A stretch of 64,000 bases of DNA from Flavobacteriales bacterium (GTDB taxonomy: Bacteria; Bacteroidota; Bacteroidia; Flavobacteriales; TMED113). Below are positions 1,097-63,289 of this stretch, in pieces. The notes under the pieces were generated by a model. The model did not search any database. It had not been told where the DNA came from and saw nothing but the letters and a program-made list of their open reading frames with translations. The stretch lies in the NCBI GenBank assembly GCA_002714185.1, contig PAWM01000006.1:33345-97344 (forward strand), in the 5' to 3' direction. Every line of letters starts with the position of its first letter. The stretch's first letter is position 1. The translations under genes and the position numbers were made by a program.

Positions 1097-1792
1097 TTAT
1101 TTTTTCTTTCTTCCTCCCGACCTTTTTGTTCCAACTACAATGGTTTCGATAGGAGTTAGACTCCGCTTTCCATAAACCTCCCCTTTACATATCCAAACCT
1201 TCACACCTATTAAACCATATGTTGTTAATGCTTCTTCAACAGCATAATCAATATCAGCACGAAATGTATGCAACGGTGTTCGTCCCTCTTTGTACATTTC
1301 TGATCTTGCCATTTCTACACCATTTAATCGACCAGATACTTGAATTTTAATACCTTCTGCTCCCATTCTCATAGCAGAGGCAATAGCCATTTTAACTGCT
1401 CTTCTGTAAGGATATCTACCTTCAATTTGATTTGCAACATTTCTAGCAACTAATTTAGCATCTAATTCTGGTCTTTTAATTTCATATATATTTACTTGAA
1501 CATCTTTTGCTGTAATCTTTTTTAATTCTTCTTTTAATTTATCAACCTACTGACCACCTTTACCAATAATCAATCCAGGTCTAGAAGTACTAATTGTAAC
1601 AATAATATTTTTTAATGTTCTTTCTATCACTATCTTGGATACACTAGCTTTAATTAACCTAGCATGTAGATATTTACGAATTTTATAATCTTCTAAAATT
1701 CTATCTCCAAAATTCTTCCCACCATACCATGCAGAATCCCAGCCTCTAATAAAACCTAATCTATTTCCAATTGGATTTGTTTTCTGTCCCAT
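1097..1792 (-). CDS. rpsC: 30S ribosomal protein S3, with one in-frame TAG at 1547-1549
   Basis: Track ORFs 1547-1792 and 1097-1390 share a frame: [19 protein letters not shown]...[10 protein letters not shown]...; 232 codons in total. Confidence 0.95.
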
Positions 1793-1795
1793 AAT

Positions 1796-2185
1796 TTAAT
1801 TTTGTTTTAATCCTAGTATTAATGTAACATGATTTGATCTTTTTCTAATACGATGTGCTCTTCCTTGTGGAGCCGGTTGAATTCTTTTTAACATTCTACC
1901 AGAATCAACAAAGATTTCTTTAATAAATAAATCTGAACTATCATCTGAATGCTTTGTTTGCCAATTCGCAATTGCAGATAATAATAATTTTTCTAATCTT
2001 ACAGAAGCATCTTTTGAACTGTGCTTCAATAAGGTTAATGCTTTATTCACTTCTAATCCTCTTATTTGATCAACTACTAATCGCATTTTTCTCGGTGAAG
2101 TTGGACAATTCTTTAATATTGCGATTGCTTTTTTATCCTGTGCTACCACCATATCTGAAGAATTATTATTTTTTTTAACTGCCAT
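1796..2185 (-). CDS. rplV: 50S ribosomal protein L22
   Basis: [10 protein letters not shown]...[18 protein letters not shown]. Confidence 0.97.
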
Positions 2186-2201
2186 TGTTTAATAATTAAA
2201 T

Positions 2202-2468
2202 TTATTTCTTTTTACCACCATGTCCTCTAAATGATCTAGTTGGTGAAAACTCACCTAATTTGTGACCAACCATATTCTCCGTAATAAATACAGGTACAAA
2301 TTGTTTACCATTATGTACAGCAAATGTTTGACCAACAAAATCAGGTATAATCATTGATGCTCGACTCCAAGTCTTTATTACTGTTTTCTTATTATTCGCC
2401 ACATTCACCTCAACTTTTTTCACAAGTTTATGATGTACATAAGGTCCTTTTTTTAGAGATCTTGCCAT
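2202..2468 (-). CDS. rpsS: 30S ribosomal protein S19
   Basis: [11 protein letters not shown]...[12 protein letters not shown]. Confidence 0.98.
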
Positions 2469-2469
2469 A

Positions 2470-3291
2470 TTATTTTCTTCGTTTTACAATATATTTATTT
2501 GAAACTTTTTTCTTCTGTCTTGTTTTAAATCCTTTAGCAGGTATACCATTTCTTGAACGAGGGTGACCTCCAGAAGCTTTACCTTCACCTCCACCCATAG
2601 GGTGATCAACAGGATTCATAGCTACTCCTCTAGTTCTAGGCCTACGACCAAACCACCGACTTCTACCAGCTTTACCTGATTTTTGAAGTCCGTGTTCAGA
2701 ATTAGAAACCACTCCAATTGTTGCTAAGCATGTATTTAAAACAAGCCTAGTTTCTCCACTAGGTAATCTTAATGTAGCATACTTACCTTCTCTAGCTACT
2801 AATTGGACACTTGCACCAGCACTCCTAGCCATTGCAGCTCCTTTACCCGGCATCATTTCAACATTATGTATACTAGTACCTAATGGAATTTCTGAAAGAT
2901 ACATTGAATTACCATTATTTGGCTGTACCCCTTTACCTGAAATAATTTCATCACCAACTTTAAGTCCCTTAGGGGAAATAATATATCTTTTTTCACCATC
3001 TTTATAAAACAACAAAGCAATTCTGGCGGTTCTATTTGGATCATATTCTATGGACTTAACAATAGCTGGAATACCAAACTTATTACGTTTAAAATCAATA
3101 ATTCTATATTTCTTTTTATGCCCACCCCCTAGATATCGCATAGTCATTCTTCCATCATTATTTCTACCACCGCTCCTAGTTTTAACTTTCGTTAAACTTT
3201 TTTCCGGTCTTGAATTAGTGACATCTTCAAAAGTTGTAACAACTTTGAAACGTTGACCTGGTGTTAATGGATTAATTTTTTTTATTGCCAT
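2470..3291 (-). CDS. rplB: 50S ribosomal protein L2
   Basis: [26 protein letters not shown]. Confidence 0.98.
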
Positions 3292-60645: not shown

Positions 60646-60714
60646 AATTTATATAGTGTTTTATATATTAATTTGAAGTTAAATGATTATAATTAAAAAA
60701 CAAGAATATTCAAT

Positions 60715-61137
60715 ATGAATCAAAATATGATATTATTAATATTATGTAGTATTTTGCTATCTTTTACAAGCTGTGAAAATGAAATATGTCGAAATTGCAA
60801 TAGTTATTTTTTAGACAATTTTAATGGTAACCTTGATAGCTTTTATGGAAGTTTTTATGTATGTGAACTGGATGATGTATGGGATGAAATTGCATGGCTT
60901 GAAGACTGCCAGGGATGCTGGACAATTAATGAAGGAGGTGATGGGTCCATTATTGATTCTGATATTTACAAACTAGGTGTTAGACATATTCAAAATACTG
61001 ATATTGATAATGATAATATTCTTAATGATTTTGATGATGATATTGACAATGATGGCTTACTTAATTTTGAAGACACAACTCCTTATGGCACAGGGATTCA
61101 AACAATTTTAGAATTAGTAATTTGTACTGAAGAGTGA
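60715..61137 (+). CDS. Hypothetical acidic lipoprotein
   Basis: Lipobox LSFTSC; two CxxC motifs; [25 protein letters not shown]. Confidence 0.7.
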
Positions 61138-61142
61138 TTTAT

Positions 61143-61292
61143 ATGAGTAATCTTTCATTTTTAAAAAAATTAAAATCTGATGAATACTATATAGCCGACG
61201 AAGGATATGTTGTGTTTACAGAAAAATATCATATTAATCGAGGCTATTGCTGTGACTCAAATTGTAGACACTGTCCATACAAAAAAAAATAA
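61143..61292 (+). CDS. Small Cys-rich protein (DUF5522-like), 49 aa
   Basis: Manual translation [49 protein letters not shown]; fills the gap before hutU. Confidence 0.85.
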
Positions 61293-61294
61293 TT

Positions 61295-63289
61295 ATGAAA
61301 AAAGTAGAGTTTTTTAAATTAATTCAACAAGGCATTCCGTCTAAATTACCACAAAAAAAAGAGTATTCTAAAGCAATCAATCATGCTCCATCTAAACAAC
61401 AAAATCTATCGAAAGAAGATAAAATACTAGCTGTTAAAAATGCACTTAGATATTTTCCAAAAAAACACCACAAAGAACTAATCAAAGAGTTTTTGGAAGA
61501 ATTAAAAAAATTTGGCAAAATATATATGTACCGCTTCAAACCTATTTATAAAATCACTTCTAAAAGTATTTATGATTTTCCACATAAGTCAACACAAGCA
61601 GCAAGCATTATGATGATGATTAGCAATAATCTTGATCATAGTGTCGCTCAACATCCAGATGAATTGATAACATATGGAGGTAATGGATCTGTTTTTCAAA
61701 ATTGGGCACAATACCTACTTACTATGCAATATCTATCTGAAATGACTAATAAGCAAAGTTTAGTTTTATACTCCGGTCATCCTTTAGGACTATTTCCTTC
61801 TCATAAGAATGCACCCAGAGTAATTATAACAAACGGTATGATGATTCCAAATTATTCTACTGCATCTGACTTGAATAGATTCAATGCTTTAGGTGTTACA
61901 CAATATGGACAAATGACTGCAGGGTCTTTTATGTATATTGGACCTCAAGGAATCGTTCATGGTACTGCAATTACTATATTAAATGCAGCAAGAATGTTAA
62001 AAAGCAACTCAAATAAAATTAAGCTATTTGTTTCATCTGGATTAGGTGGTATGAGCGGAGCACAACCTAAAGCTGCAAAAATTGCTGGATTAATTAGTGT
62101 AACTGCTTAGATTAATAAAAAAGCACTATATAAAAGATATGAACAAGGATGGATAGATGAGATAACATCTGATTTAGATAGATTAGTAAAAAGAATAAAA
62201 AATCTAAAAAAAATAAAAAAAATTGTTTCAATTGGATTCCATGGTAATATTATTGATGTATGGGAAAAATTTTATAAAGAAAATATATTTATTGATATTG
62301 GATCTGATCAGACTTCTTTACATAATCCATTTCAAGGTGGATATTATCCTAATAATTTATCATTTAAAGAATCTAACCAAATGATAAAAAATCAACCTGA
62401 TGAATTTAAAAAATTCGTAAAAAGGGCTTTGAAAAAACATGTGAAATATATTAATAAACACACTGATAAAGGAACATATTTCTTTGATTATGGTAATGCT
62501 TTTTTACTAGAAGCGAGTCGAGCTCATGCAGATATTTTAAAAGATAACGGAGAATTTAAATATCCCTCATATGTACAAGATATCATGGGACCAATGTGCT
62601 TTGATTACGGCTTTGGTCCATTTAGATGGATTTGTATGTCAAATAAAAAAGAAGATTTAGAGAGAACAGATAAAATAGCTCAATTAGAATTAAAAAAATT
62701 ACTTGTAGATGCCCCCAGTGAAATAAAACAACAAATGCAAGATAATATTGATTGGATAAAAGCTGCTAAAAATAATAATTTAGTTGTTGGATCACAAGCT
62801 AGAATACTTTATGCAAATAGCGATGGAAGAATTAATATTGCTCAAGCATTTAATAATGCCATCAAAAAAGGTGTAATAGGCCCAATTGTTATTGGACGAG
62901 ATCATCATGATGTTTCTGGAACAGATTCTCCTTTCAGAGAAACTTCTAACATTTATGATGGCTCGCAATATACTTCAGATATGTCAATTCAAAATGTAAT
63001 TGGTGATAGTTTTAGAGGAGCCACATGGGTATCGATTCACAATGGTGGAGGAGTTGGTTGGGGTGAGGTTATCAATGGAGGATTTGGATTACTATTAGAC
63101 GGATCCAAACAAGCTGAGGATAATCTAAAAAGTATGCTACACTGGGATGTTAATAATGGTATTGCACGAAGGTCTTGGGCAAGAAACAAAGAAGCTATCC
63201 AAGCTATTAAAACTGCTATGAAAAAAGAAAAATTCCTAAAAGTTACTATCCCTAATTTAGTAGATGAAAAACTTATTAAGAATCTTTAA
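61295..63289 (+). CDS. hutU: Urocanate hydratase, with in-frame TAG at 62108-62110
   Basis: GQMTAGS.MYIGPQGIVHGT, GLGGMSGAQ, SVTA*INKK...GSDQTSLHNP, GRDHHD, HNGGGVG; 665 codons in one frame. Confidence 0.93.

Follow-up and report, generated by a model that had tools for sequence, protein, structure and literature searches.

Four genes in the 64,000-nucleotide stretch of DNA analysed here (the window) are each interrupted by one in-frame stop codon, TAG in rpsC and hutU and TGA in fusA and purL, which raises the question of whether a Flavobacteriales bacterium translates these codons as sense or whether they are errors in its assembly. The window sits on contig C6 (107,010 bases) of the source assembly, G000, which is 1.52 Mb long, has a GC content of 28% and is 88.7% complete. 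We conclude, with a probability of about 0.96, that the four stops are G-to-T errors private to this assembly and form part of a genome-wide scatter of G:C>T:A changes. The genetic code of the organism is the standard one, and in its other assemblies these genes are intact. The interruptions are thus not a real biological feature, and neither the genes nor the code is out of the ordinary.

The four interrupted genes and their intact counterparts

When the window sequence was re-read, all four stop codons of the original prediction were found in place (Table 1), and past each of them the frame stays open to the usual C terminus, as had been claimed; in purL, 19 residues remain after the stop (Gly722 of 741). 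The residues proposed for the homologous positions, Glu, Gly, Gly and Glu, are also those of the same-genus genome G001. Position 272 of HutU is Glu in 119 of 119 homologues, and position 722 of PurL is Gly in 118 of 119, the remaining one not being covered at the site.

Table 1. Interrupted genes of the window and other positions at which it differs from public runs; the four stops are interpreted as errors of the assembly
Feature	Position	Strand	Codon in the window	Elsewhere
rpsC (ribosomal protein S3, 231 aa)	1097..1792	-	TAG, codon 82 (1547-1549)	GAG (Glu) in runs
fusA (EF-G, 701 aa)	5174..7279	-	TGA, codon 537 (5669-5671)	GGA (Gly) in runs
purL (741 aa)	20131..22356	-	TGA, codon 722 (20191-20193)	Gly in twin protein
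hutU (urocanate hydratase, 664 aa)	61295..63289	+	TAG, codon 272 (62108-62110)	Glu in twin protein
rplD, missense	3776	-	GAA (Glu144)	GCA (Ala); T>G in 4/4 runs
rplC, two missense	4418 and 4529	-	Lys148, Leu111	Gln, Val; 4/4 runs
Silent difference	10914	+	GGT	GGG; T>G in 4/4 runs
Sole transition, missense	13626	+	GAA (Glu)	GGA (Gly); A>G, 3 covering runs

There are 21 listed public runs that contain this DNA, mostly marine metagenomes, and the four best matches among the 21 (X1 to X4, from three studies) were compared with the window between positions 900 and 14600 (13,701 bases). All 21 runs consist of assembled contigs, from which rare variants drop out. X1 and X2 look alike and may be one data set, perhaps the source sample, and the independence of the comparison therefore rests on X3 and X4. 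At both stops within this interval, the window's A at 1549 (rpsC) and at 5671 (fusA) is a C in all four runs across the whole aligned depth, giving the sense codon, and the stop alleles are absent from the compared contigs. Position 1549 lies 32, 32, 29 and 30 bases from the contig ends, so that the 31-base bridging rule is satisfied only by X1 and X2, and position 5671 lies 104-255 bases from them.

Seven fixed differences in all separate the window from the runs, and at six of the seven a G:C pair in the runs is T:A in the window (P = 7e-6 if all rates were equal; a density of 1.45 per 1,000 G/C), with none of the seven going the reverse way, from T:A in the runs to G:C in the window. Of these six, two create stops, three are missense (one in rplD, two in rplC) and one is silent. 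Protein records tell the same story for the missense sites: the RplD form of the window is on 1 contig only, and the RplC of other assemblies (P0300, 10 contigs) differs from that of the window (P0299, 1 contig) at exactly residues 148 and 111.

The genes purL and hutU lie outside the interval compared with the runs, and the evidence there comes from protein twins. PurL P0241 (741 aa, 6 contigs) differs from the window translation solely in having Gly at 722, and the truncated 721-aa PurL (P0121) occurs on a single contig, 107,010 bases long like this one. HutU P0001 (664 aa, 7 contigs) differs solely in having Glu at 272, a residue also present in HutU P0242. Exact look-up furthermore placed the 231-aa S3 with Glu82 on 10 contigs and the 701-aa EF-G with Gly537 on 5 contigs; the truncated EF-G had no exact twin in the look-up. 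An exact-pattern scan of metagenome contigs for the hutU site gave 0 matches, near-identical records possibly lying outside the scan, and the 80 loci kept in a scan for relatives of the HutU locus are 63-69% identical, include none from the same species and were not used. The original prediction had rated artefact or damage as somewhat more likely than recoding. This leaning was correct, and with sense codons or residues elsewhere at 4/4 sites the case for it is now far stronger.

Premature stops across the genome

Frames of two same-genus genomes, covering 1.53 Mb in G001 and 0.92 Mb of the roughly 1.4 Mb in G002, were aligned with G000 and with each other, and premature stops were counted, excluding those at most 30 residues from the start or at most 15 from the end. 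Of the 1281 frames of G001, 1008 could be aligned with G000, and unshared genes are outside the count. The rows dropped from G000 were C12:19421 and C8:53531/53537/53633 (shadow frames on the antisense strand that hold several stops), C9:10966 (weak flanks at an N-terminal edge) and C8:85823 (upstream ATG absent); from G001, four L083 rows (whose queries were shadow frames antisense to ribosomal-protein genes), four L091 rows (a shadow frame) and L095:12114 (weak flanks at an N-terminal edge); and from G002, L150:11480 (a shadow) and L128:10480 (5' of the start). A looser first-pass count, which was mostly shadow and edge noise, was discarded.

The resulting count for G000 is 19 premature stops, namely 7 TAA, 6 TAG and 6 TGA, 18 of them in the comparison with G001, over 327,300 aligned codons, and one more seen only with G002. 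G001 itself has 0 in 321,235 codons (P = 8e-6 versus G000), and G002 has one in 213,351 codons (P = 0.0015 versus G000). The comparison with sister genomes, suggested earlier as a check, thus speaks against recoding: the stops are not shared, and G001 contains none. The earlier statement that there is no premature TAA holds within the window and fails genome-wide, where TAA, at 7/19, is the largest class. The differences of the assembly run in one direction and are blind to coding effect, yielding TAA, TAG, TGA, missense and silent changes alike. From stop-forming codons, the genome-wide rate of false G:C>T:A changes is 0.46 per 1,000 G/C sites.

G000 also stands out in other comparisons of the three genomes. 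Radical lineage-specific changes explicable by G>T make up 20/87 in G000, 11/112 in G001 and 6/87 in G002, an excess in G000 with P = 0.002 by Fisher's test, or 0.009 when the 3 stops are left out. Frameshift-like breaks number 7 and 8 in the two comparisons of G000, 3 and 2 in those of G001, and 2 and 1 in those of G002.

How the stops divide among the three codons deserves some care. Outside the window, TAA, TAG and TGA number 7, 3 and 4 versus 9.3, 1.7 and 3.1 expected from codon supply (P = 0.41), and the classes there fit random G:C>T:A change. Over all 18 sites of G>T type, TAA is under-represented (7 versus 11.9 expected, P = 0.03), as it is at the 13 twin-confirmed sites (P = 0.01), and the main part of the shortage is in GAA>TAA (2 versus 7.4 expected, P = 0.007); sequence context or chance may account for it. 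One TAG, at a Trp codon (TGG>TAG), is not a G>T change and adjoins a cluster of Ns. The window carries 4 stops versus 0.9 expected from the genome average, with P(>=4) = 0.014, uncorrected and for a window that was picked, and zero TAA among the four has P = 0.013 if G:C>T:A changes fall at a uniform rate, and P = 0.06 at the TAA share observed outside the window.

Look-ups of the proteins extend the result from the window to the genome. Among the 19 genes with premature stops, 17 were looked up in read-through form, and for 13 of the 17 a full-length twin exists, on 4-11 contigs. In these twins the residue at TAG is Glu in 5 genes (rpsC, hutU, gyrB, which was named from its sequence, and two others), the residue at TGA is Gly in 3 (fusA, purL and one other), and the residue at TAA is Glu in 2 (RuvB-like and peptidase-like, again named from sequence) and Ser in 3. 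Truncated forms, where listed, are on one contig each, with a length that matches a contig of this genome. Exact look-up found no full-length twin for C17:41342, C5:4781, C6:16242 and C16:74285, a result that further errors or a different start would give; for C19:38971, it is the longer of two start choices that lacks an exact twin.

The consistent mapping of TAG to Glu and TGA to Gly, which had been read as a possible sign of recoding, loses its force in this setting. A first-position G>T change necessarily turns GAG into TAG, GGA into TGA and GAA into TAA, and so by itself produces TAG at Glu, TGA at Gly and TAA at Glu. No single code could read TAA as Ser (TCA) in some genes and as Glu (GAA) in others, but each is one G:C>T:A step away. 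The mapping of TAG and TAA to Glu and of TGA to Gly is thus on its own no sign of recoding, and TAA at Ser offers a cheap discriminator.

Decoding in the organism and other readings of the stops

A biological reading would be that the lineage is at an incipient stage of reassignment or suppression, in which Glu is inserted at TAG and Gly at TGA. It draws on the confirmed sites, at which TAG is always Glu (5) and TGA always Gly (3), and on the slight over-representation of TAG and TGA versus TAA (P = 0.01-0.03). Furthermore, a suppressor tRNA could have escaped assembly, as G000 itself lacks the tRNAs Gly(UCC), Trp, Tyr and Lys. Against this, the runs have sense codons in 4/4 cases at rpsC and fusA, intact twins are found at all four sites, and TAA is also found at Ser and Glu and TAG at Trp. 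The numbers are equally unfavourable: in columns aligned with G001 there are 4 TAG versus 19,702 Glu codons, and at most 6 TGA versus 20,672 Gly codons (<=0.03%). Both codons are working terminators, as the original prediction had noted. Of 458 genes whose alignment with G001 extends to the final residue, 385 share the position of the stop, and in G000 they end with TAA in 287, TAG in 53 and TGA in 45, the last two together ending 98 of the 385; 28 of the 45 TGA-ended genes end in TGA in G001 too. RF1 (an open frame with PQT and GGQ) and RF2 (an open 367-aa frame with SPF and GGQ) are intact, and none of the 32 tRNAs in this 88.7%-complete assembly has a CUA, UCA or UUA anticodon. Among 15 family relatives searched, 13 gave a full-length EF-G match, and in all 13 the frame is open (701-739 aa). 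Sense alleles in the runs and in other assemblies, together with premature TAA, refute recoding or readthrough as it had been proposed, and we regard incipient reassignment as exceedingly improbable. The same very low standing is given to a narrower version, in which a real marine Flavobacteriales sub-lineage reads the stops through, by leaky termination or with a suppressor tRNA missing from the assembly, at an ambiguous-intermediate stage of reassignment; such a sub-lineage would need to give TAA two meanings, Ser and Glu, and to be absent from the four compared runs and from all other assemblies examined.

Somewhat less remote, and still very unlikely, is that the assembly is a true record of a single cell or a sub-population that had suffered G:C>T:A damage or become a mutator (dying cells, or cells in which 8-oxoG repair had failed), its stops being real but lethal or transient. 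The G:C>T:A spectrum is that expected from failed 8-oxoG repair, as in mutM/mutY mutants, and in this respect it would suit such a cell. The stops are also somewhat unevenly distributed among the G000 contigs (P = 0.06), and if X1 to X4 all derive from other samples the source population would have gone unseen. On the other side, the stops fall in fusA, rpsC and gyrB, with a second full-length EF-G absent from the 88.7%-complete assembly, and the MutY-like (352 aa) and Fpg-like (272 aa) frames of G000 are open. Between truly diverged strains, moreover, transitions and silent changes should predominate, yet here 1/7 fixed differences is a transition and 1/7 is silent.

Proposed cause and comparison with known systems

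Errors private to the assembly thus remain the preferred reading, and their likely cause is oxidative damage of the 8-oxoG type or a similar one-way base-calling error. Oxidised guanine (8-oxoG) would pair with A during library amplification and so be read as T, and such errors could have become fixed at sites represented by few molecules or by a single sub-assembly. G000 contains 282 Ns, mostly single bases and densely clustered, and these clustered single Ns suggest merged sub-assemblies in disagreement. Artefacts of 8-oxoG are defined by an imbalance of read-1 and read-2 orientation and a low allele fraction, both of which are read from raw reads; from the assembled contigs used here, the artefact itself is firm and its chemical cause likely. 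Low-fraction damage artefacts of the published kind should seldom win a consensus, which weighs against an oxidative origin.

These results bear on the use of this genome more widely. The assembly carries a false G:C>T:A load of roughly 0.5 to 1.5 per 1,000 G/C sites, and its truncated proteins have been deposited, several of them as cluster representatives. Single-residue, broken-gene or odd catalytic findings on this genome should therefore first be compared with other assemblies.

Our literature search, in main texts, found no case of stop reassignment in cellular Bacteroidota, with only crAss-like phages surfacing, and the available part of PMC13695967 has no mention of Bacteroidota. In the accounts available in part to us, bacterial stop reassignments take UGA to Gly or Trp, with RF2 lost and often a UCA tRNA (PMC8629427, PMC13695967). 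Of these, translation table 25 (UGA = Gly; Absconditabacteria and Gracilibacteria), as far as the available descriptions go, resembles G000 in low GC (28%), small genome and the presence of a few TGA codons at Gly. G000 differs in having RF2 and in using TGA to end genes, with TGA at <=0.03% of Gly codons; a tRNA-Gly(UCA) was not found among the 32 tRNAs of the incomplete assembly, and the TGA sites are not common to relatives, other assemblies having Gly codons there. UAR = Glu is reported, in the part of PMC12153298 available, for Blastocrithidia, and the TAG and TAA at some Glu columns of G000 look similar. That code is eukaryotic and genome-wide, whereas here there are 5 TAG and 2 TAA sites at Glu in one assembly, TAA is also found at Ser, and the sites appear in no other assembly of the organism.

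Nor did the literature search turn up reports of metagenome assemblies with G>T errors fixed in them, the nearest being on long-read frameshifts. C>A/G>T sequencing artefacts from 8-oxoG have been described (Costello et al. 2013, PMC3616734), and C>A/G>T damage artefacts are known to yield false nonsense calls (Chen et al., bioRxiv 10.1101/070334). As described in the available portions of these two papers, such artefacts are low-fraction and concern human resequencing reads, whereas the changes in G000 are fixed in a bacterial assembly consensus; the two have in common one-way C>A/G>T transversions that are absent from independent data.

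Premature stops across the assembly

Beyond the window, a genome-wide count in the source assembly (GCA_002714185.1) gives 15 additional premature stops, which belong to the same artefact class as the window's four, judged to be assembly errors. Several truncated products of the stop-bearing genes have been deposited and are used as cluster representatives. When the 18 G>T-type stop sites of the whole genome are set against codon supply, GAA>TAA falls below expectation (2 versus 7.4, P=0.007) and GAG>TAG lies above it (5 versus 1.7 expected), a deficit and an excess that possibly reflect a sequence-context bias of the error.

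Across both same-genus control genomes (G001 and G002), just one premature stop is credible: a TAA of G002 (L145:4967) that aligns with Leu. At window position 1550, adjoining the rpsC stop site, contigs of two public runs (X3 and X4) carry a silent C>T variant, which is a natural polymorphism or stems from a close relative.

Frameshift-like breaks and N clusters

Judged from sequence comparison, six frameshift-like breaks are probably assembly errors as well. The Ns are mainly single bases, densely clustered over 100-270 bp, a pattern that looks like the product of merged overlaps that disagreed; the sole TGG>TAG stop (C16:102184) is about 140 bases away from such a cluster.

Features of the source assembly, by contig (C) and position
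Feature	Position	Remark
Premature stop	C17:22352	gyrB
Premature stop	C5:37862	RuvB-like gene
Premature stops	C17:41342, C19:38971, C11:40443	example sites
Frameshift-like breaks	C3:109803, C8:47148, C8:77310, C17:32623, C17:60651, C20:34059	versus both G001 and G002
N cluster	C6:30599-30723	
N clusters	C16:15619-15884, 98630-98780, 101888-102044	

The release factor 2 gene

Programmed frameshifting is common in bacterial RF2 genes. The prfB gene here (locus L168, C12:57453-61001) seems to do without it, because its 367-aa frame is single and uninterrupted and the locus contains no CTTTGAC site.
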